Assembly (NCBI GenBank): GCA_003164215.1
Contig: PLSR01000003.1
Coordinates: forward strand, 28,892-92,891
Reading direction: 5' to 3'
DNA: 64,000 nucleotides
Origin: Candidatus Kaiserbacteria bacterium
Lineage (GTDB): Bacteria; Patescibacteriota; Minisyncoccia; Phycocordibacterales; UBA2100
Shown here: positions 1,000 to 60,532 of the stretch, one piece after another
Position numbering within the stretch: position 1 is the stretch's first letter
Layout of the letters: every line of letters starts with the position of its first letter
Made by a program: the position numbers and the translations under genes
Notes under the pieces: generated by a model
What the model was told of the DNA's origin: nothing
Database searches by the model: none
Seen by the model: the letters and a program-made list of their open reading frames with translations, nothing else

Positions 1000-1031
1000 A
1001 GAGCTTCATAATACCAGAAAATCTGGCTTTT

Positions 1032-2645
1032 TTAAGCCGCAGGTAATTCGACGACGAATCGCGAACCTTTGCCGGCCCCTTGCGATTCAGCCCATATCTT
1101 CCCGCCGTGCGATTCGACGATGGTCTTTGCAATGAAGAGGCCGTAGCCGGTCGAGTGAACATTGACCTTGATGGAATCCTTGCCGTGGCCGCCTTCAGTA
1201 AAGAGACGCGCCTTGTCTTCGCCCGTGATGCCAACGCCGCTATCTTGCACTGAAAATCTCACGATGGTGCCTACACGCACAACTTCGATCGTGATAGAAC
1301 CAGTCGGAGTATATTTGATCGCGTTATCAACGAGGTTACGCACCACGTGGTCACGGATCTTTTCTTCATCGCCGCTCACCTTGCATGGCACTTCCCATGC
1401 GAGCGACATGTTCATGGTGAGATGTTTCTCATCGACCGCGGGTTTGAGATGATCGACCACGCCCCGTACGACATCCTTGAGATCGAAAACATCTTTCTTA
1501 TACGAGACAGTGCCACGTTTTAGATTCGAAGCATCGAGAATATCCATCACCGTTCGAACGCCACGGCGCACGTCGATCAAAGCTTCGTTCGCCATCGTGG
1601 AAATATCCGATGAGACCGGTCCGAAATCTCCCTGCGCTATCGCCGCAAATCCGGCCTCGCTCTTGGTAAGATAGCCCTTGATCTCATGGCTGATGAAGTG
1701 GAGCAGGCTCACCTGCTGTGCATTCACGTTCTCTAATTCAACTTCTTGTTTTTGAATCACCTCGCGTTGCTCGACCTCATTGAAAACACCTCGAATGAGG
1801 AGAATTCCGACGGCCAAGACTAGCACGAATACGCTTAATCGAAAGATAAGGATCGTTGGATCGGACGACAAGAGGATATCGAACAGGGTCAGAATAGCCA
1901 CGCTCCCGACAAGTAACGCCGTCGCGATGATCTTCACATTGAACAGATGATGTCTCGATATGGCATACGCGGTCAATATGATGAACGGAAAAATGAACAG
2001 AGGGCCATACTGAACGAACGAAGAATTACCAAGCACGGCTGGAGCTATGAAGTTAAACGCGAGGATGAGCGTGAATGTGATGACCGTACCCAAGAGAATA
2101 GTTCTATACGCCGCACGCTCTTCGTTCCGCGCTCGATATGTTTGAATGGCGAATTTGATGAAGCTTGTAATGATGAGCATCCCGACGAATAGACCGAAGA
2201 TCGCAATGGCAGGTCCGTTTGTCACATTTTGAACACGTCCGGTCTCAGAAAAACTCGTGATCTTCTCAAAAACGAACGGCGATAGGGTGAGCAGTGAGAC
2301 AAGCGCGGTCAGCGGAATGAGCACATGACGATACCACGCGGGAAGCGACCTCTTTTCAGCGGGAAAAACGTAATAAAAGTGAAAGAGCGAGAACGCGAAC
2401 CATGTCGCGGAGAACAGCAATGCTCGCAGAAGCCAGAGGACTATCTGCGGCGAAGAAGATTCATAGATCTCAATATTCAGAACGCACCAAATGATGGATG
2501 AGATCGCGATGTAGAGGAATGCTTGATGAGTCACACTTTTGCGATTGCTGATGAAAACGGCGAACCCGATGACAAGCATGAACGCAGCTACTACTGCGAC
2601 AAAAAAAAGATCAATATTCGTAAGATCGAAGTAGGCGTTTGTCAT
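1032..2645 (-). CDS. sensor histidine kinase with multi-TM N-terminal sensor domain
   Basis: 537 aa; about 7 hydrophobic helices at the N-terminus, then an H-box (LHFISHEIKGYL) and HATPase_c motifs (DSGVGI, GLGL-like); no adjacent response regulator. Confidence 0.8.
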   Translation of the reverse strand: MTNAYFDLTNIDLFFVAVVAAFMLVIGFAVFISNRKSVTHQAFLYIAISSIIWCVLNIEIYESSSPQIVLWLLRALLFSATWFAFSLFHFYYVFPAEKRSLPAWYRHVLIPLTALVSLLTLSPFVFEKITSFSETGRVQNVTNGPAIAIFGLFVGMLIITSFIKFAIQTYRARNEERAAYRTILLGTVITFTLILAFNFIAPAVLGNSSFVQYGPLFIFPFIILTAYAISRHHLFNVKIIATALLVGSVAILTLFDILLSSDPTILIFRLSVFVLVLAVGILLIRGVFNEVEQREVIQKQEVELENVNAQQVSLLHFISHEIKGYLTKSEAGFAAIAQGDFGPVSSDISTMANEALIDVRRGVRTVMDILDASNLKRGTVSYKKDVFDLKDVVRGVVDHLKPAVDEKHLTMNMSLAWEVPCKVSGDEEKIRDHVVRNLVDNAIKYTPTGSITIEVVRVGTIVRFSVQDSGVGITGEDKARLFTEGGHGKDSIKVNVHSTGYGLFIAKTIVESHGGKIWAESQGAGKGSRFVVELPAA

Positions 2646-3670
2646 CGTTGTTCGTTCAATGCCAAGTAATGACCGTGAGAATAAAACCTGAGCGAAGACC
2701 CTGCGTGTCTACGCTTTATATTCTGTTTTGTAGCGAAGCGCAAATTTGAGAATACCACGGCGTTCAGAAAGACGGGGTGCGACCAGCCGGTCAATGTTTG
2801 CGGCAGCAGGTGGATATCGCTTCGCAACCCGTCATAATTGAGGGAATATCTCCCCAGTACGGACATGATCTCCATAAGTTTGATCACCCCATCGTTGTCG
2901 AGGTGGTGTAAGAAAAGCATTGTCATCACCACAGTAAAATCTCGCGGTTGAAATTCCCGAGAAAGATCGAAAATATCATTTTGACATTGCACGATCAAAA
3001 CGGGGGTCTTGTGTTCTCTCTCAAGCCTAAGCAGGACATCTCTGCTAACGACATTCTCGCGCACGATCGTAACGCGAGGATCATGAGTCTCGTTGAACGT
3101 CTGCGCGACCAGTGTGTGGGCTAATTCAGATGTGTCGATGGTCATGATGGTGACGTTGCGCACCTGATCCCCGGAAAGGAGCGTGGTGACGAATTGTCGC
3201 TCGGCCTCAGCGGCACCGCTACCGAGCGATGCGATTCGAATGCGGCTATCTTTTGAAATTTGCACAAGACGCAGAAGGCATTCTACGACCGGTCGCGCGA
3301 TACCTGGAAAAGGTCGACGTTCGACCTCGGACAATTTGGCATGCATGATGTGGTCAAGGTCAGGCAGTATCTCATTGATCTCAAGAAGGTCATCCGGTTT
3401 GATCGAGTGGGAATGGATAAGCCATTTCACATATGAAGGCACCGTTCGTATCGCCTCAAAAAAACGCAGATTCTGCTCAATCGCGTACGCATTAGTCAGC
3501 GGATGATCGTCACGTTTCAGACCTTTCAATTGAGACAAAATATAAGTGATCTGCGCTGAACGATCCTCGGGCACTGTTCCAGTGCTCGGCGTTCGCTCTG
3601 CGGTGCTCATATTGTCCGTTTCGTTACTGCTCATAGGTAATGTGTGGAGCTCGTCGCTTTGTTCGCGCAC
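2642..3670 (-). CDS. hypothetical protein with Rossmann-like GxGxxA motif (possible NAD/SAM-binding enzyme)
   Basis: 342 aa ORF; IASLGSGAAEAE motif; 4-nt overlap with the upstream kinase gene; true start may be an internal Met near 3610-3634. Confidence 0.4.
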   Translation of the reverse strand: MREQSDELHTLPMSSNETDNMSTAERTPSTGTVPEDRSAQITYILSQLKGLKRDDHPLTNAYAIEQNLRFFEAIRTVPSYVKWLIHSHSIKPDDLLEINEILPDLDHIMHAKLSEVERRPFPGIARPVVECLLRLVQISKDSRIRIASLGSGAAEAERQFVTTLLSGDQVRNVTIMTIDTSELAHTLVAQTFNETHDPRVTIVRENVVSRDVLLRLEREHKTPVLIVQCQNDIFDLSREFQPRDFTVVMTMLFLHHLDNDGVIKLMEIMSVLGRYSLNYDGLRSDIHLLPQTLTGWSHPVFLNAVVFSNLRFATKQNIKRRHAGSSLRFYSHGHYLALNEQR

Positions 3671-4772
3671 TCGCTGGACGGTGCGGGAGGCCGATGCGCA
3701 AAATCATGACAACGCCTTTAGACCCGACGGCCTGTTCAATTGACTCTTGCGCCGCAAGGATCCTTTTTCGAAGCTGCGACGCGATATCCGGGTCATTTGT
3801 TCGCCTCACGTATTCCGCAAGATAGAGAAGTCCTGCAAGTGGTTGAGCGGCGAGACCTTCGGCAGTCGTGGTAAGCCACGCACGTTCCATGCACCTGCCT
3901 GCGTTTATAAAATCCTCTTGCGTGGTTCCGGTGAGTATGACCGCTATACAGGCTCCAGTTCTCGCGTATAAGGCGGAATTACCCAATGCCGCGCCTCGCG
4001 CGAAGCCGATACGATTGAGTGTCGCCGTCACGGGCCAGAAATTCAACGCCCGAAAAAGAAGTTGCACCGGGGGCGGTAATTCCATCGTCTTAATATACAT
4101 GCCTGCCTCACCATTCTCGTTCTTATTCTCATCCCAAAAAATACTATCGAAAAAAGATCGGTGAAGTTTCTTTGTTCGCAATGCGGCCTCTTCCATGAGC
4201 ACAGACGAATGAGCGATGGTCTCAATTGCGTGGCGATCAGTGACAAGTAGCGCCCGAGCATCGCCCTCATGAATATCGCGAAGATGCTCAAAGAAAGACG
4301 GCTGAATGATCTGATGATATGGATTGCGATTCGTGTGACGCTTTTCGATCGTGTGAAATAAAGGATGCCCCGAACGATCACGCTCGTCAAAATGTACACG
4401 TGCGACGGCGTCGTCCTCTCCGTGAGAAAGATCAATAGCGGTATCGAGCCCGTCTTCCTGTGCGGCGATCGAGATATTTTCCACGAGCGCTCCGATCGCG
4501 ATCATCGTGCCGCGAGCCTCAATATTGAGGATCGGGTTATCGAGCTCGGGAAGCGCGTAAACATAGACCGTGTCACCCTTGACGGCAAAACGCCACGGTT
4601 GCGTATTATCGCCGGAAGGCGCCTTGGTACCGTGATGAAGAATTCGCTCGAGACGACTGCGGTCGATCATACGTATGATCTCATGGAAGTCCGATCGCGC
4701 GACGGAATTCGGCACGACGAGCATCTCGCTCAGTTTTTCCATCTGCATACGTCGGGTCGAAGATCGAGTCAA
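3624..4772 (-). CDS. nitroreductase-family (SagB/McbC-like dehydrogenase-type) protein, probably tandem NTR fold
   Basis: 382 aa; APSGDNTQPWRF matches the nitroreductase FMN-site signature; about twice the single-domain NTR length; overlaps neighbouring genes. Confidence 0.7.
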   Translation of the reverse strand: MTRSSTRRMQMEKLSEMLVVPNSVARSDFHEIIRMIDRSRLERILHHGTKAPSGDNTQPWRFAVKGDTVYVYALPELDNPILNIEARGTMIAIGALVENISIAAQEDGLDTAIDLSHGEDDAVARVHFDERDRSGHPLFHTIEKRHTNRNPYHQIIQPSFFEHLRDIHEGDARALLVTDRHAIETIAHSSVLMEEAALRTKKLHRSFFDSIFWDENKNENGEAGMYIKTMELPPPVQLLFRALNFWPVTATLNRIGFARGAALGNSALYARTGACIAVILTGTTQEDFINAGRCMERAWLTTTAEGLAAQPLAGLLYLAEYVRRTNDPDIASQLRKRILAAQESIEQAVGSKGVVMILRIGLPHRPASARTKRRAPHITYEQ

Positions 4773-5796
4773 GGCTTATTTCCACCTTCTGCTGAGTCAG
4801 CGGTTGCTTGAGCGCGATCCGCCTCAATGCGTAGGCGATGGCAACACCGGAAAGCGTCGCGGCGTCACCCAGTTGTGGCCAGGAGTAGATCGTCTTCCCC
4901 ACCTGTAACAACGACTCTGTCATGCGTATGGTGACGAGGTCAGGACCCGCGATCTTCGTCGCCAATCGAGGCAATTCCTGCGGCGGGAACGATCTGAATT
5001 CTTCGATCGTGATGTCCCCTATCGCGCCGTTGAAAAGCTGAGCATTGCGATCGAGATCGAACCGATCTGCTTCAAAAATGATGTTGTCGCCATTATCAGT
5101 TGCCATGATGACCGGAATACCGCGCTTACGCGCCTCGAATCGAAGGCGTATTTTCATCTCAAGGTTGTCTGTTTCTTCGACCAGGACGTCGATATCGGAC
5201 AGAAATGCATCCATGTTCGCTTCCGAAACTCCATCAGGAAATGACTCCACATCGGCATACGGATTGAGCTGGTAGAGATATTCGCTCGTTAGATCAGTTT
5301 TCTTCTTACCGACATCAAGAAAATCGAAGCGTATGCGGTTCAGATTAGAGGGCGACACTGTATCCGGGTCCGCGATCTTCACGTGACGGCCGCCACCCAT
5401 GAGCGCAAAGGTCGCGACGCCGTGACTGCCTACTGATAGACCAGCGTATGCGACTCGCAAGCCGTAGAGCGCGGCTTGCTCGTCCTTCTTGATGATCTCT
5501 CTATTGCGCGCGGTGCGTATCTCAAGATGCTCTGATTCTGTGAGATAGTGGGCGCATGTTCGATTCCAAGGAAAGTAGAACCATTCGCCGCATTCCGACA
5601 GCGATTTACCGACAGCGTATTCTCTCGTGAATTGTTCAAGTTCAGAAACGTGATCTTTGATGAATTTGAAACGCGGATTCCGTATGAGGAAAAGATCCTC
5701 AAGGAGCAGTTCGTACTGATCGATGATATTTGCCGGCTTCAATCGCCCGACGAACGATCCATATGTCTCAGTGCTTCGGTCAAGTCGTTCAGGCAT
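4681..5796 (-). CDS. ThiF/MoeB/E1-like adenylyltransferase with ~110-aa N-terminal extension
   Basis: 371 aa; nucleotide-binding loop YAGLSVGSHGV..GGG and DPDTVSPSNLNR typical of the E1/ThiF fold. Confidence 0.75.
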   Translation of the reverse strand: MPERLDRSTETYGSFVGRLKPANIIDQYELLLEDLFLIRNPRFKFIKDHVSELEQFTREYAVGKSLSECGEWFYFPWNRTCAHYLTESEHLEIRTARNREIIKKDEQAALYGLRVAYAGLSVGSHGVATFALMGGGRHVKIADPDTVSPSNLNRIRFDFLDVGKKKTDLTSEYLYQLNPYADVESFPDGVSEANMDAFLSDIDVLVEETDNLEMKIRLRFEARKRGIPVIMATDNGDNIIFEADRFDLDRNAQLFNGAIGDITIEEFRSFPPQELPRLATKIAGPDLVTIRMTESLLQVGKTIYSWPQLGDAATLSGVAIAYALRRIALKQPLTQQKVEISLDSIFDPTYADGKTERDARRAEFRRAIGLP

Positions 5797-5819
5797 GCTG
5801 AAATGATATCACGCCATTT

Positions 5820-7316
5820 TCAATTTTGTTTGAGTACCCACCGCTGCTTGATATCTCGCCTGAAATACGCCGGGTCTTCATAGGGCCAGTACACAATTTT
5901 GGGGACGGATCGGGCACCGAGAAAGTTGCACAGTTCACGAAACTCTGAATTCTTCTCTTTGAGATTCTTTATGATCTCGGCGAGCAATAACGCTGAGAAC
6001 TCGGGGCTGGCCTCTCTCCCCTGACGTAACTCGACGTTGATCTCAAGATATTGGTCGTGCGAGTCATCAAAACGCGTAGCAAGTGTCAAGCGGCCCGACA
6101 GGAACGGGGCGAATGATTCTCCGAGCAGGACCTCTTTGACGGTCTCCGGATAGACTTGTAATCCGTACAAAGTCGCCGAGAGATCACTACGCTCATACAC
6201 ATAGACGAACGGCAACAATCGAAGATCATCTGGGATCTTTGCGGCCTTCATTTCCTTCAAAAGATCGACACCGTGATCCGCCATGATCCGTTCAATTTCA
6301 GCGAATGTATACACGCCGCCATTGTCGCCGATCGCATACCGCATAAGCGGCATGGCGCTATCCGCCGAGAGTAGCAATTGCCCTTCGTGTTGTTCGAATG
6401 CAGTGTAGGCGGGAATGTTCTGCGCGAGTGTCGGCGTTTTGCTGATATCGCCGAACAAGGTCTTAAAAATTTCAGGTTTTTGTATCGCGATCTGACGAAC
6501 ACGAATAGAGAGCGGTGTCTCGAACGCCATCGTTCCCACGTCCGCGCTCCCGTATACATTCATTGTATCGGTCAGCGGGTTCTTTATGTTCGCCTTTTTC
6601 ACGACGTAATCTCGAAATTGCTCGGTGAATGCTTCTGCCGCGAAAAGAATTGCCACTTTGTGATTCTTTAAGGAAATACCTGCCTCGGCCGCACCGTCGA
6701 GGACATCTTTGATGAACGGCGGATACCCGGTAAGAATGATCTGTTTGTAGCTGGGAGCAAGTTTTCGAAGTATTTTCAGTATTTCGGTGCGGTTGATGCC
6801 CGGAGTAATGATGGATATCGGATGCCCGCGTTTTGACATAAGCTCGAAGGCTTGGTATGTCAACAGGCCGCCGATCCAGATCCCCATGCCGAAGCATATG
6901 ATGACAAGCGTAGATTCCGTTTTCGAGAGCGAAGTCTGAAGAAAAAAGCGCTCATGGATCAGCGCAGATTGTTCGTCGATGGTCGGTGACCGTCCGAAGA
7001 AGAACGGTTCCCCGGTCGAGCCGGATGTTGAAGTAAGCACATGTGGCGTCGCCAGTGAGCCGCCCCAAAAAAGATCTGCATATTTTGCAGGGCGTAGATA
7101 GTTGTCCTTTGAGGTAAGTGGTATGCGCAACAGATCGTGGTCTGTCTTGATATCCGCAGCTCGAGTCCCTGCATTTTTCAGGAATTTCTTATATGCCGGC
7201 ACTTCTGCCGCCATTTTGTGGAACAATCGCACGAGCGTAGAATCGGCCCGTGGAGATTCTGGGCTACGAACCTTCTTCGTACTCTTTTTCAGCCGTGGGC
7301 GAACCGATTGTTGCAT
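5820..7316 (-). CDS. adenylate-forming enzyme, PaaK/CapK/F390-synthetase-like (ANL superfamily)
   Basis: 498 aa; P-loop-like TSTSGSTGEPFFF (A3 motif) and YGSAD (A5-like) motifs. Confidence 0.6.
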   Translation of the reverse strand: MQQSVRPRLKKSTKKVRSPESPRADSTLVRLFHKMAAEVPAYKKFLKNAGTRAADIKTDHDLLRIPLTSKDNYLRPAKYADLFWGGSLATPHVLTSTSGSTGEPFFFGRSPTIDEQSALIHERFFLQTSLSKTESTLVIICFGMGIWIGGLLTYQAFELMSKRGHPISIITPGINRTEILKILRKLAPSYKQIILTGYPPFIKDVLDGAAEAGISLKNHKVAILFAAEAFTEQFRDYVVKKANIKNPLTDTMNVYGSADVGTMAFETPLSIRVRQIAIQKPEIFKTLFGDISKTPTLAQNIPAYTAFEQHEGQLLLSADSAMPLMRYAIGDNGGVYTFAEIERIMADHGVDLLKEMKAAKIPDDLRLLPFVYVYERSDLSATLYGLQVYPETVKEVLLGESFAPFLSGRLTLATRFDDSHDQYLEINVELRQGREASPEFSALLLAEIIKNLKEKNSEFRELCNFLGARSVPKIVYWPYEDPAYFRRDIKQRWVLKQN

Positions 7317-7340
7317 ATATTGCCCTACACGATGACATAT

Positions 7341-8384
7341 TTACGATCGTTGAACAAGGTCACGCAGGTGCTTCAAAACGATGCCCTGATGCTTGGGAGA
7401 TGGGACCGCCATCCGTATGGTATTACTCAGCAGCGTTCTGGCGGGGTCATACGCGGACATCCATGATCCTTCGGATACGTGAATTTTCCGCTTATGTAGC
7501 AAGCTCGAAAGAGAAACGGCATCCGGAACCCGAAACAAAATGAAATTCGTGGCAGAAGGATAAGCGGTGACGCCGGATATGGTACGGAGCTCGGTCAATA
7601 TATCGTCGCGCATGTCTGCAATAAGTCTGCGGCGTGCCACGAATTCTTTTGCTCGCACAAGTAAAGCCTGTGCGATGACGACGCTGGGATGTGCTACCGG
7701 CCATGGCAGGAGCGCGCGCGTTATGAGAGGGGTAATGTCCGGCGACGACATACAGTAGCCAATTCGTGCTCCCGCAAGCCCGAAGGATTTCGAAAGTGTG
7801 CGAAGAATAACGATCGATTGCGAATCGAGCCGTTCGATCGAGGTTTCTCCACCGAATTCAAAATAGGCTTCATCAACGACGGCAAGTATGCCATACTTTT
7901 GCGCCGCATCGAGCACTTTCTTGAGGTCCTCATGCGGAATAGAAGATCCAAGTGGATTATTTGGTGTACAAAGAAATATACATCCCACGCGACTCGCGGC
8001 GATGGCTTCAAGTACGTCGGCTGTTGGAAAAATAAAAGCTCCATCGACCTCATGGTAATAAAACGGAATGACAGTGGCGCCTTTTTGTTCAGCAATTCGC
8101 TCGTATCCGTAAAATGTGGGTACCGGAAGACCGATGGGCAGACCCGTGTGTTCGCAGTATTCGGTCAAGATAGAGATCGCCGCATCTGAGCCGGCAGTGA
8201 CGTTCACACGTTCCCGATCGACACCCGCATAACGGGCCAATGCGTCCAATAATGCGTCGTATGATGGATAGGTAGACAGTGTCTGCGCTTTCAACAATTC
8301 CGCCAAGCCACCTATGATCGCGTCATCCAGCAACCAATAACTTTCGTTATGTGCCAAAGGAATTATACCCGTACTGCCGTTCAT
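7341..8384 (-). CDS. class I/II PLP-dependent aminotransferase, histidinol-phosphate/aromatic aminotransferase-like
   Basis: 347 aa; PLP-lysine motif LSKSFGLAGARIGY; NPLG motif. Confidence 0.8.
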   Translation of the reverse strand: MNGSTGIIPLAHNESYWLLDDAIIGGLAELLKAQTLSTYPSYDALLDALARYAGVDRERVNVTAGSDAAISILTEYCEHTGLPIGLPVPTFYGYERIAEQKGATVIPFYYHEVDGAFIFPTADVLEAIAASRVGCIFLCTPNNPLGSSIPHEDLKKVLDAAQKYGILAVVDEAYFEFGGETSIERLDSQSIVILRTLSKSFGLAGARIGYCMSSPDITPLITRALLPWPVAHPSVVIAQALLVRAKEFVARRRLIADMRDDILTELRTISGVTAYPSATNFILFRVPDAVSLSSLLHKRKIHVSEGSWMSAYDPARTLLSNTIRMAVPSPKHQGIVLKHLRDLVQRS

Positions 8385-8400
8385 AGTCTTTGAACTCTCA

Positions 8401-8898
8401 TCAGCTTCGAACGAACGCGAGGATGATAAACACCCCTAGGAACCACAGAAGTGCATAGGGTAAGCCGAAAATCGCATGGATCTGATTGCCAGGATTCCAT
8501 AGTGCGACGAGAGCCGGTATCTGCAACCACATGACTATGAGCGCGATAGTTCCACTTATACCGGCGAGGAAGGAATTCATCAGTCCGCCCGATGACCCCC
8601 CGAACGTTGCCGTCATGCGGTTCGTGAGAAGAAATACTGCGATAAAGATCACGACCAAAATACCTGCCATGACATATGTCGATGCCAAAAATGGAGCGAT
8701 CACACTTTCCAATAGGAATGTATGCGGAATGAGACTAAAAAGAAATAGTGATACGGGTGACGTGATTGCGATTATAGAAGCATGTGCCGCACCCGAGCGC
8801 ATCGCATCTATGGTGAGCAGAAGGACAAGTAGAACGAAGACGATCCAGCCGAACGGGATGTGAGTGAGCCAGGTGGGAAAAAGAGCAGAAAGATTCAT
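8401..8898 (-). CDS. hypothetical integral membrane protein (about 5 TM)
   Basis: 165 aa, strongly hydrophobic; start overlaps the dnaJ stop by 4 nt, implying co-transcription. Confidence 0.5.
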   Translation of the reverse strand: MNLSALFPTWLTHIPFGWIVFVLLVLLLTIDAMRSGAAHASIIAITSPVSLFLFSLIPHTFLLESVIAPFLASTYVMAGILVVIFIAVFLLTNRMTATFGGSSGGLMNSFLAGISGTIALIVMWLQIPALVALWNPGNQIHAIFGLPYALLWFLGVFIILAFVRS

Positions 8899-8901
8899 AG
8901 A

Positions 8902-9999
8902 TCAAAGTCCTTCTGCACGCAACTTATCAATAAGGTCTCGCGCAGAGCGGGAAAGTTTCTTCGGAAATTCGATGTCGACGCGAATGATGAGATCGCCACG
9001 GCCGCCGCGAGCGGTTGGGACACCTTTTCCGCGGATCCTGATAGTCTCGCCATGCACAATACCGGCAGGTACCGTGACGACTTCTTCACCATCAAGCGTC
9101 GAGATGCGATACTCGCCGCCGAGAAGTGCATCGGTGAGCTTGATCGGAAGTGCCGTGAGCAAATTATTGCCGTCACGCGAGAATGATGCGTCGGTCTTCA
9201 CGTGCAATTTTACATAAAGATCCCCCGCGCTGCCGCCCTTGGCCGCTTCACCGCGACCCGGCATACGGATCATCTCACCATCTTGGACTCCTCCGGGGAC
9301 AGTAACGTGGATCTCCTCCTGACGCTTCGTCACGCCCGCTCCACGGCAGGTCTCGCATGGTGTCTCCGGGATCTCACCGCGGCCGCTGCAGGTCGGGCAC
9401 AAGCGTGCTGACGTGAAGTTCCCGAAGAAGGTGTTGCGGGTCTCACGAATATCACCCTTGCCGTTGCAGGTCTTGCAGGTGATCATTTTCGAACCCTTCT
9501 TGGCTCCAGTACCGCTGCACACGTCGCAGACCGCCATCTTCGAGATGAGCACCCGGCGATCTGTGCCGAAAATACTCTCTTTAAATGAAAGCTCGATATC
9601 GATGGAAATGTCGCGCCCTCGCTGTTGACCGCGCCCACCGCCACCATTGCCCCCGAAAATATCACCGAAAATATCACCGAGGTCGAATTCGACATTCTGC
9701 CCATTGAAACCCTGGAATCCTTGCTGGAAATTTGAGAAATCGAACCCACCGAATCCTGCGCCGGATGCCGCACCGTTGCCTCCCGCAAATGTCTTGCCGT
9801 ACGTATCGTATTCCGCCCGCTTCTTTTTATCTGAAAGCACGGAATACGCCTCGCTCAGCTCTTTGAATTTGGCCTCATCGCCGCCCTTTTTGTCGGGATG
9901 ATGTTTCTGCGCGAGTTTGCGGAAAGCTTTTTTTATATCGTCTTCAGTCGCGGATTTCGAAAGCCCAAGAATATCGTAGTAATTCTTCATAGAGGTCAT
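8902..9999 (-). CDS. dnaJ: molecular chaperone DnaJ
   Basis: J-domain with HPD motif, G/F-rich region, four CxxCxGxG zinc-finger repeats. Confidence 0.9.
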
Positions 10000-60325: not shown

Positions 60326-60373
60326 GACGTGAAATATAGCACCTGCCTTCGCCCAAGGCTACGGGCGGACGGG

Positions 60374-60406
60374 TAAAAAAGAGACCGCCATGTCGCCACG
60401 GCGGCC
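60374..60406 (-). terminator. intrinsic terminator/attenuator hairpin 50 nt upstream of tyrS and 127 nt downstream of cfa
   Basis: minus-strand GGCCGCC-GUGGCGACAU-GGCGGUC followed by UCUCUUUUUU. Confidence 0.45.
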
Positions 60407-60532
60407 TGAGTCTAGGGAGGAAACGCCCAAGGAGGGCATATGCGGCAGGTCATGCCACACCTCCTTCACCGTAGCAGTTCATCCAAATTTGTCTATGTGC
60501 GAGAGGTGTGGATAACATAAACCCCCATCGTG

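Follow-up and report, generated by a model that had tools for sequence, protein, structure and literature searches.

The oxazolone synthetases characterised so far are OxzB (2021), TyzB/TyzC (2023) and TrzS (2025) (bioRxiv 10.1101/2020.06.11.147165; PMC10404671; PMC12856293). OxzB, the founding member, comes from Pseudoalteromonas rubra (bioRxiv 10.1101/2020.06.11.147165), TyzB and TyzC form a split version in the tyrazolone pathway (PMC10404671), and TrzS, the product of Rv1355c, acts on N-acyl-tryptophan, which it cyclises with ATP and then desaturates with O2 to give N-acyl tryptazolone (PMC12856293). These enzymes are known from Proteobacteria and Actinomycetota, in every case with an acyl-coenzyme A (CoA) N-acyltransferase as partner, and the known oxazolones are made from Tyr, Phe or Trp. 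Their physiological role is an open question (PMC12856293), and a 2025 review of ThiF-like chemistry names OxzB as the only validated case of a ThiF-like enzyme with a small molecule as its substrate (PMC12596934). Here, we analyse a stretch of 64,000 nucleotides (nt; hereafter the window) from Candidatus Kaiserbacteria bacterium (assembly GCA_003164215.1, contig PLSR01000003.1, positions 28,892 to 92,891), in which seven co-oriented open reading frames (ORFs) on the minus strand fill the interval between dnaJ (8902-9999) and trpS (64-999). Two of these genes encode a ThiF-like protein and a flavin-dependent oxidase (FDO) that are predicted by sequence to constitute a split form of the oxazolone synthetases of the Rv1355c family. 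The unit resembles the oxazolone synthetase pathways, although by the NCBI cut-off it falls outside the family, and it lacks the defining acyltransferase partner. It probably makes a hitherto undescribed small molecule derived from an amino acid and perhaps also senses it.

The ThiF-like protein (371 aa; 5796-4681, on the minus strand as are all seven genes) contains PF00899 (76 bits), and its best NCBIfam model is NF005901 'Rv1355c family' (250 bits), with residues 25-354 aligning to profile positions 39-347. The same model is the best match of the nitroreductase-like, Acg-type FDO (4742-3624, start uncertain), which takes up profile positions 359-715 (155 bits) and also matches NF047509, the Acg family of flavin mononucleotide (FMN) oxidoreductases (144 bits). 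When concatenated, the two proteins score 407.9 bits and cover the whole profile. Natural ThiF-FDO fusions occur in Magasanikbacteria, at L056 (2876-5077, 733 aa) and L058 (11415-13610, 731 aa), the junction falling exactly at the point where the window's two genes meet, and the 733-aa fusion matches NF005901 over its full length with 450.5 bits. The ThiF-like protein shares 36% identity over 287 aa (E 2e-57) with a Rhodococcus plasmid protein annotated as Rv1355c family, and the FDO shares 22% identity over 349 aa with the C-terminal, FDO half of the same protein. Across 12 diverse relatives, the ThiF-like protein keeps residues G119/G123, D143/D145, N151/N153/R154, K166 and D210 unchanged; these make up the Gly-rich loop, the DxD and SNLNR elements, the Lys and the adenylation Asp. 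Its DN motif aligns with the adenylation motif of UBA1. In TrzS, the D217A substitution in the adenylation motif abolished cyclisation (PMC12856293); D210 sits in this motif, a match at the level of the motif, the residues not being directly aligned. The only solved relative of the FDO by sequence is Acg 2YMV, which is also the closest structure reported for TrzS (PMC12856293). Mapping of TrzS R540 onto the FDO through the Rhodococcus homologue gave inconsistent numbering offsets, and no position was assigned.

The likeness to TrzAS (Rv1356c-Rv1355c; M. tuberculosis, M. smegmatis, Rhodococcus) extends from the two catalytic modules, a ThiF-like ATP-dependent cyclase and, after it, an Acg-type FMN oxidase, to the collinear match along the whole profile, the conserved adenylation Asp motif and the existence of fusions in some Patescibacteria. 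Signalling genes adjoin the actinobacterial loci too, namely cyclic di-GMP (c-di-GMP) enzymes in M. tuberculosis and a GGDEF gene on the Rhodococcus plasmid; the authors of the TrzS study noted the c-di-GMP genes beside trzAS and raised a signalling role (PMC12856293). In contrast to TrzS, the modules of the window are separate genes, and the unit, which has no TrzA-type N-acyltransferase, instead combines a PaaK-like ligase with an aminotransferase or dehydrogenase, a histidine kinase and, optionally, a methyltransferase. TrzAS is hosted by mycolic-acid actinobacteria, the present unit by a member of the Patescibacteria. In its split gene organisation the locus is like TyzACB (Rv2336-2338c, M. 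tuberculosis), where a stand-alone ThiF homologue, TyzB, lies beside a stand-alone FDO of ~370 aa, TyzC, and the product, an N-acyl oxazolone from an aromatic amino acid, is like the one proposed here. Compared by description, TyzACB differs in that the acyl step is carried out by TyzA, an acyl-CoA N-acyltransferase resembling acyl-homoserine lactone synthases, with no ligase and no kinase. OxzAB shares ATP-dependent ThiF-nitroreductase chemistry on a small molecule, whereas OxzB is a fusion, is paired with the fatty acyl-CoA-using N-acyltransferase OxzA and is proteobacterial. On the plasmid of Rhodococcus sp. AQ5-07 (L165, 2004-6097), the Rv1355c-family gene lies beside the GGDEF-domain gene and is adjoined by a divergently transcribed gene for a 259-aa hypothetical protein, probably the TrzA-type acyltransferase, so that this neighbourhood mirrors the c-di-GMP setting of M. 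tuberculosis trzAS. This presumed TrzA-like protein, the identity of which is itself inferred, had no tblastn match in the window or in 160 related loci; it also had no Pfam match, which weakens its use as a negative probe.

To determine how widely the unit is conserved, we scanned one genome per species with a profile of the PaaK-like ligase. At least 585 stretches in the species-representative genomes match this profile, and the best 80 of these carry Patescibacteria-type or unclassified metagenome-assembled genome (MAG) labels, except for one labelled Gammaproteobacteria. The 160 related loci that were compared are labelled in the same way, again with one exception. Amongst 48 genome loci anchored on the ligase and with enough flanking sequence, the ThiF-like gene is present in all 48, the FDO in 45 and the kinase in 42, and all four genes are found together, and adjacent, in 42. 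In 26 metagenome loci anchored on the ThiF-like gene, the FDO is present in every case and the ligase and the kinase in 25 each, with adjacency in 25/26. Median gaps between these genes are 2-26 nt. Their order varies (ligase-ThiF-FDO-kinase, ligase-FDO-ThiF-kinase, or FDO-ThiF-dehydrogenase-ligase-kinase), and despite this the kinase is always last. The conserved core thus consists of four genes, which encode the PaaK-like ligase, the ThiF-like protein, the FDO and a polytopic-membrane histidine kinase, and the operon is real and conserved across hundreds of species of Patescibacteria (candidate phyla radiation, CPR). The initial annotation had described a tightly packed, biosynthetic-looking unit of seven genes with an embedded kinase. 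The packing, the conservation and the place of the kinase are borne out by these comparisons; the membership of all seven is not, since the membrane protein goes with dnaJ, whilst the other two accessory enzymes, aminotransferase and methyltransferase, are replaceable or optional. We found no description of the CPR operon in the literature, in a search that lay mostly outside subscription journals, nor does it figure in a 2025 review of the chemistry of ThiF-like proteins (PMC12596934). The remark in the initial annotation that it knew of no characterised pathway with exactly this composition is out of date for the ThiF-FDO pair, which belongs with the oxazolone synthetases, and stands for the exact composition, with a ligase in place of the acyltransferase and a kinase, which appears undescribed.

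Several side observations concern the arrangement of the unit in relatives. In four loci (L018, L048, L055 and L074), an insert lies directly upstream of the FDO gene, between ligase and FDO, and contains genes for a TrmB-like regulator, a GTP cyclohydrolase II-like protein (PF00925), a ~108-aa ORF and a CMP-kinase-like ORF. The order is ligase...FDO-ThiF-kinase in three of these loci and ligase-ThiF...FDO-kinase in L048, and the insert may be related to flavin supply. A further locus (L040, 5430 bases) shows the perfect inverted arrangement dnaJ > ligase > 97-aa ORF < ligase < dnaJ, which looks like an assembly artefact rather than biology.

The PaaK-like ligase (498 aa; 7316-5820) has no Pfam hit, and it matches the PaaK model TIGR02155 with 44.4 bits, in the N-terminal half only, far from the equivalog cut-off of 646.3. 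Its AlphaFold2 (AF2) model has a predicted local distance difference test score (pLDDT) of 81, and the best PDB matches in Foldseek are PaaK1/2 (2y27, 2y4o; E ~1e-20), BT_0428 and 2-hydroxyisobutyryl-CoA ligase (HCL), with ClxA and AjiA1 coming next. It has intact ANL adenylation motifs (TSGSTG 97, YGSAD 255, YAIGD 327, RSD...G 376) and K490 is invariant; the protein is thus predicted to adopt the PaaK-type two-domain ANL fold. It shares this fold and the adenylation motifs with PaaK, AjiA1 and ClxA, from which it differs in an identity of only 13-19% and in being ~70 aa longer. PaaK-fold coupling enzymes that are independent of CoA exist in benzoxazole pathways (NatL2, AjiA1, ClxA). No OxzA/TyzA-type N-acyltransferase was found in the window's unit, and no further conserved gene family in 80 loci. 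It is therefore plausible that the ligase is the acyl supplier and gives rise to an N-acyl amino acid.

The gene directly upstream of the ligase in the window encodes a HisC/CobD-like aminotransferase (347 aa; 8384-7341), with PF00155 (E 6e-45) and the pyridoxal phosphate (PLP)-lysine motif SKSFG at residue 198. It scores 194.3 bits against hisC (TIGR01141; cut-off 276.55) and 178 against CobD (cut-off 290.55), and is therefore a PLP enzyme of the HisC/CobD class but not HisC by the NCBI criterion. Amongst the 48 genome loci, an aminotransferase lies directly upstream of the ligase in nine, a dehydrogenase of ~350 aa belonging to the Glu/Leu/Phe/Val family in 18 (PF02812, PF00208; best NCBIfam model the Trp dehydrogenase ScyB), and both together in none. 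The aminotransferase is thus a replaceable accessory, and the occupation of one slot by two unrelated enzymes of amino-acid/2-oxo-acid metabolism argues that the pathway needs such a step.

From the observed gene content, homology, motif conservation, operon conservation and aminotransferase/dehydrogenase exclusivity, we infer the following chemical steps for a variant oxazolone pathway. The aminotransferase would interconvert an amino acid, probably aromatic or branched-chain, and its 2-oxo acid, and in this way supply or recycle the amino acid; in other genomes the Leu/Phe/Trp-type dehydrogenase would perform this interconversion. The PaaK-like enzyme would adenylate a carboxylic acid and pass the acyl group, directly or through CoA, to the amino group of the amino acid to give an N-acyl amino acid, and would in this way replace the acyl-CoA-dependent N-acyltransferase (OxzA, TyzA or TrzA) of the known pathways. 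The ThiF-like enzyme would then use ATP to adenylate the alpha-carboxylate, whereupon attack by the amide oxygen would close the oxazol-5(4H)-one ring, and the FMN oxidase would desaturate the bond from C-alpha to C-beta to yield the unsaturated oxazolone, as do OxzB, TyzBC and TrzS. Where present, the methyltransferase may decorate substrate or product, and the membrane kinase, whose gene always comes last, may have the hydrophobic product, or a cue related to it, as its ligand. We give this pathway, in which the ligase supplies an N-acyl amino acid that ThiF cyclises and the FDO desaturates, an even chance of being correct.

Several points weigh against the oxazolone pathway. Both scores against NF005901, 407.9 bits for the concatenated proteins and 450.5 for the fusion, miss the curated equivalog cut-off of 476 bits, and the comparison was made with this model and with the Rhodococcus protein rather than with the studied TrzS, TyzB, TyzC and OxzB sequences; scores below the cut-off and identities of 22-36% leave room for another substrate or even for another ring chemistry. 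Amide formation by the ligase, which we take to be the weakest link of the model, is deduced from the absence of an acyltransferase, the closest structures to the ligase are CoA ligases, and its family contains no characterised member. Both aminotransferase and dehydrogenase are absent beside the ligase in 21 of the 48 complete loci (~44%). Finally, the characterised FDO desaturation uses O2, and many Patescibacteria inhabit anoxic environments.

It is unlikely, although less so than any other alternative, that the same enzymes make a product other than an oxazolone. In such a scheme the ThiF-like enzyme would activate the carboxylate of a conjugate made by the ligase, for example a dipeptide-like compound or a 2-oxoacyl-amino acid, and a different nucleophile would close the ring or accept the group. 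The product might then be a diketopiperazine, a hydantoin-like ring, an ester or amide, or a dehydro-amino-acid derivative, with the FDO acting as a desaturase like AlbA. The shortfall against NF005901 and the low identity to the actinobacterial member speak for this possibility, as does an acyl donor system unlike that of all known oxazolone pathways. Moreover, members of the ThiF family catalyse diverse reactions (TcdA, MccB, PaaA), and the cyclodipeptide oxidase AlbA belongs to the nitroreductase superfamily (10.1101/2020.06.11.147165). However, both halves match the TrzS family collinearly and over the full length, and natural fusions exist, so that conserved chemistry is the simpler expectation, and no other partner enzyme is conserved in the unit.

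Improbable to a greater degree is a role in the salvage or catabolism of acids and amino acids, in which the ligase would be a plain aryl- or acyl-CoA ligase acting on scavenged aromatic or branched-chain acids together with the aminotransferase or dehydrogenase, the ThiF-like protein and FDO would carry out a side reaction, and the kinase would regulate uptake or use. PaaK-like ligases paired with aminotransferases do occur in the routes from aryl acids to aromatic amino acids in anaerobes, the closest structures to the ligase (PaaK1/2, BT_0428, HCL) are those of CoA ligases, and an aminotransferase or dehydrogenase is directly upstream in 27/48 loci. Yet the ligase is accompanied more constantly by the ThiF-like protein (48/48) and the FDO (45/48), both of a biosynthetic family, than by the aminotransferase or dehydrogenase, and neither 2-oxoacid:ferredoxin oxidoreductase nor another enzyme of a CoA pathway is conserved in the unit.

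The initial annotation had likened the locus to thiazole/oxazole (TOMM) machineries, with a nitroreductase of the SagB/McbC type and the prospect of a short precursor-peptide ORF. In a system of this type, or of ribosomally synthesised and post-translationally modified peptides (RiPPs) more generally, the E1-like protein would dock the precursor, the nitroreductase would oxidise azolines, and the ligase and aminotransferase would tailor the product. The two do have features in common, in that E1-superfamily and nitroreductase-superfamily proteins co-occur in TOMM systems and in both cases a five-membered heterocycle would be formed, and a distant member of the kinase family adjoins YcaO and a C39-type peptidase (L170). 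The analogy nevertheless fails in its particulars and is very improbable. None of the seven proteins matches YcaO, and the unit also lacks a SagB-type dehydrogenase, an 'ocin' E1 docking protein and a precursor peptide; the NCBIfam models for SagB (TIGR03605) and for the 'ocin' E1 proteins (TIGR03603/03882/03693) gave no match at E<=0.01, the nitroreductase being instead an Acg-type FDO. Between 999 and 8902 no spacer exceeds 32 nt, which leaves no room for a precursor ORF, and the best homologues act on small molecules (PMC12856293).

That the locus is a chance cluster of housekeeping genes (a ThiF/MoeB sulfur-carrier activator, an FMN reductase, HisC and an unrelated kinase) is hardly credible and is refuted by the neighbourhoods and the cut-offs, since the matches to the ThiF (66 bits, cut-off 159), MoeB (44, cut-off 449) and HisC models are weak and, like that of the ligase to PaaK, fall well short of the curated cut-offs, a ThiS/MoaD-like gene is lacking, and adjacency is kept across at least 100 loci with rearranged orders and natural ThiF-FDO fusions. 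The genes are thus neither scattered in relatives nor housekeeping, in agreement with the initial annotation. An anti-phage E1-E2 system was also considered and rejected, as the PADLOC matches were confined to the ThiF domain, where they were weak (<=32 bits), and the other genes had none.

The histidine kinase (537 aa; 2645-1032), at the 3′ end of the unit, combines PF16927 (HisKA_7TM) with PF02518 (HATPase_c). It has ~9 hydrophobic segments within residues 14-283, and its catalytic boxes are intact (H-box FISHEIK 320, N-box 440, G1 468, G2 500). A purely membrane-embedded sensor of this kind resembles the receptors of hydrophobic autoinducers. In CqsA/CqsS, LuxM/LuxN and AgrBD/AgrC, a biosynthesis gene likewise lies beside a multi-pass membrane histidine kinase that has no large extracytoplasmic domain; the proteins of these systems are non-homologous to those described here, and the unit, for which secretion, sensing and autoinduction are conjectural, usually lacks a DNA-binding regulator. 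A more specific form of the oxazolone proposal is that the operon is a dedicated signalling system of Patescibacteria, which makes a hydrophobic oxazolone-type (azlactone) compound by the ligase route and uses the adjacent kinase as its receptor. We regard this as doubtful. The kinase is an orphan, as the initial annotation had stated, since tblastn found no receiver domain in the 64-kb window, and neither hybrid kinases nor hidden receivers were found amongst the kinases of 68 loci. A single-domain receiver lies beside the unit in 9/48 genome loci and 8/26 metagenome loci, in each case without an output domain. The missing regulator in the window and the receivers without output domains tell against a functional link between kinase and pathway, a link suggested by adjacency. 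In single loci the unit is followed by additional kinases, namely three in tandem (585, 532 and 532 aa) in L043 and two kinase-receiver pairs in L059.

We examined the genomic context of five sensor-domain homologues of the kinase (L167-L171). The closest, L167, again lies behind ligase, ThiF and FDO genes. In L168 (4940-9259), the kinase follows an MvdD-type ATP-grasp and a methyltransferase gene, with a radical-SAM/SPASM gene nearby, and occupies the same chromosomal slot as in the window, before trpS-aspS; two of the loci L168-L171 share this slot before trpS/aspS. In L169 (5174-8455) and L171 (753-5756), the kinase lies behind a PlsC-type acyltransferase and an NAD-dependent reductase-like gene, and in L170 (6847-12032) it follows a 50-aa ORF and precedes the C39-type peptidase and YcaO genes. 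The last four loci form the basis for suggesting that this kinase family pairs with changeable biosynthetic cassettes. The presence of distant kinase relatives behind other cassettes would point to interchangeable 'signal synthase + receptor' modules.

If the oxazolone pathway is correct, this chemistry reaches a third and very large lineage, with a different logic of acyl supply, and the ligase family, which comprises at least 1,700 protein clusters and has no Pfam domain, gains its first functional context. The unit is widespread in a lineage in which conserved biosynthesis is unexpected. Patescibacteria have minimal biosynthesis and very few kinases, with ~0.29 histidine kinases per 100 genes (PMC10805038), yet this kinase stays with the operon across classes. 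A conserved biosynthetic unit coupled to a kinase gene therefore offers a concrete lead on sensing and signalling in these bacteria. Should the signalling proposal also hold, the kinase would be one of very few in the genome, and no autoinducer-like system would have been proposed for these episymbiotic bacteria before this one. As the genes are short and their products soluble except for the kinase, the chemistry could be reconstituted in Escherichia coli or in vitro.

The two remaining genes of the window's unit are less conserved. The protein encoded between FDO and kinase (330 aa; 3634 or 3670 to 2642) is Rossmann/methyltransferase-like and belongs to a family of 21 clusters, in which the few attached source names are all Patescibacteria. 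Methyltransf_11/25/12 are weakly matched in 8 of 18 family members but not in the window protein, and a GSG motif is invariant. The AF2 model (pLDDT 90.9) has an N-terminal helical lid, and in Foldseek it comes closest to methyltransferases of natural products and small molecules (CurJ C-MT, CmoA, NovO and SgvM; E ~1e-7 to 1e-8). The 2642-3634 protein is thus predicted to have a class I S-adenosylmethionine (SAM)-methyltransferase fold, and as a methyltransferase gene lies between FDO and kinase in 5/48 loci it is an optional accessory. The first gene of the seven encodes a membrane protein (165 aa; 8898-8401) with ~5 hydrophobic segments and no family match in Pfam or NCBIfam. This protein or one similar to it (154-169 aa, cluster c22; called as 125 aa in L082) is found in nine loci, each with dnaJ immediately upstream, and is absent from units located elsewhere in the genome. 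Its confinement to loci with dnaJ directly upstream indicates that it belongs to the dnaKJ neighbourhood, and it is probably outside the conserved unit.

As initially annotated, the seven genes are co-oriented and separated by at most 25 nt. The spacers between membrane protein, aminotransferase, ligase and ThiF genes are 16, 24 and 23 nt, the FDO and methyltransferase genes overlap by 11 nt, and the methyltransferase and kinase genes by 4 nt (ATGA). The FDO gene has three candidate starts, at 4772 (TTG), 4742 (ATG, the public gene call) and 4670 (ATG). A start at 4742 gives an overlap of 62 nt with the ThiF gene, the upstream starts together giving a range of 62-92 nt, whereas the start at 4670 lies 10 nt past the ThiF stop and yields a protein of 348 aa, which fits the 345-358 aa usual in relatives. 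The reported overlap of the last gene with the dnaJ stop was not found, the ATG of the membrane-protein gene (8898) instead beginning 3 nt after the dnaJ stop codon (8904-8902). Six of the seven ORFs have a family or fold assignment and the gene order recurs in public contigs, so they are not chance ORFs. An identical ThiF protein is encoded on a public metagenome contig of 170 kb, where the gene order is the same and runs from a ribosomal-protein operon through grpE-dnaK-dnaJ and the seven genes to trpS-aspS-scpAB and cell-wall genes. With the names borne by close homologues (Kaiserbacteria, Paceibacterota, Patescibacteria group), this layout puts the window in the Patescibacteria/CPR.

At the other end of the unit, the kinase stop lies 32 nt from trpS. 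A weak terminator-like hairpin (1025-1038, minus strand), with a 5-bp stem followed by a T-run, is situated at the kinase stop codon and is possibly the end of the operon. Promoter and terminator scans of the region gave site counts at or below the shuffled expectation, so that this hairpin is no more than a hint of where the operon ends. A promoter-like site with an extended -10 TG was seen immediately before trpS (1008-1038 region). Elsewhere in the window, at 60368-60444 on the minus strand, RF00519 (suhB/mmgR) gave a gathering-level Rfam match along the full model (64.4 bits against a threshold of 41), located in a 207-nt intergenic gap between two minus-strand ORFs. The suhB/mmgR family consists of alphaproteobacterial small RNAs.

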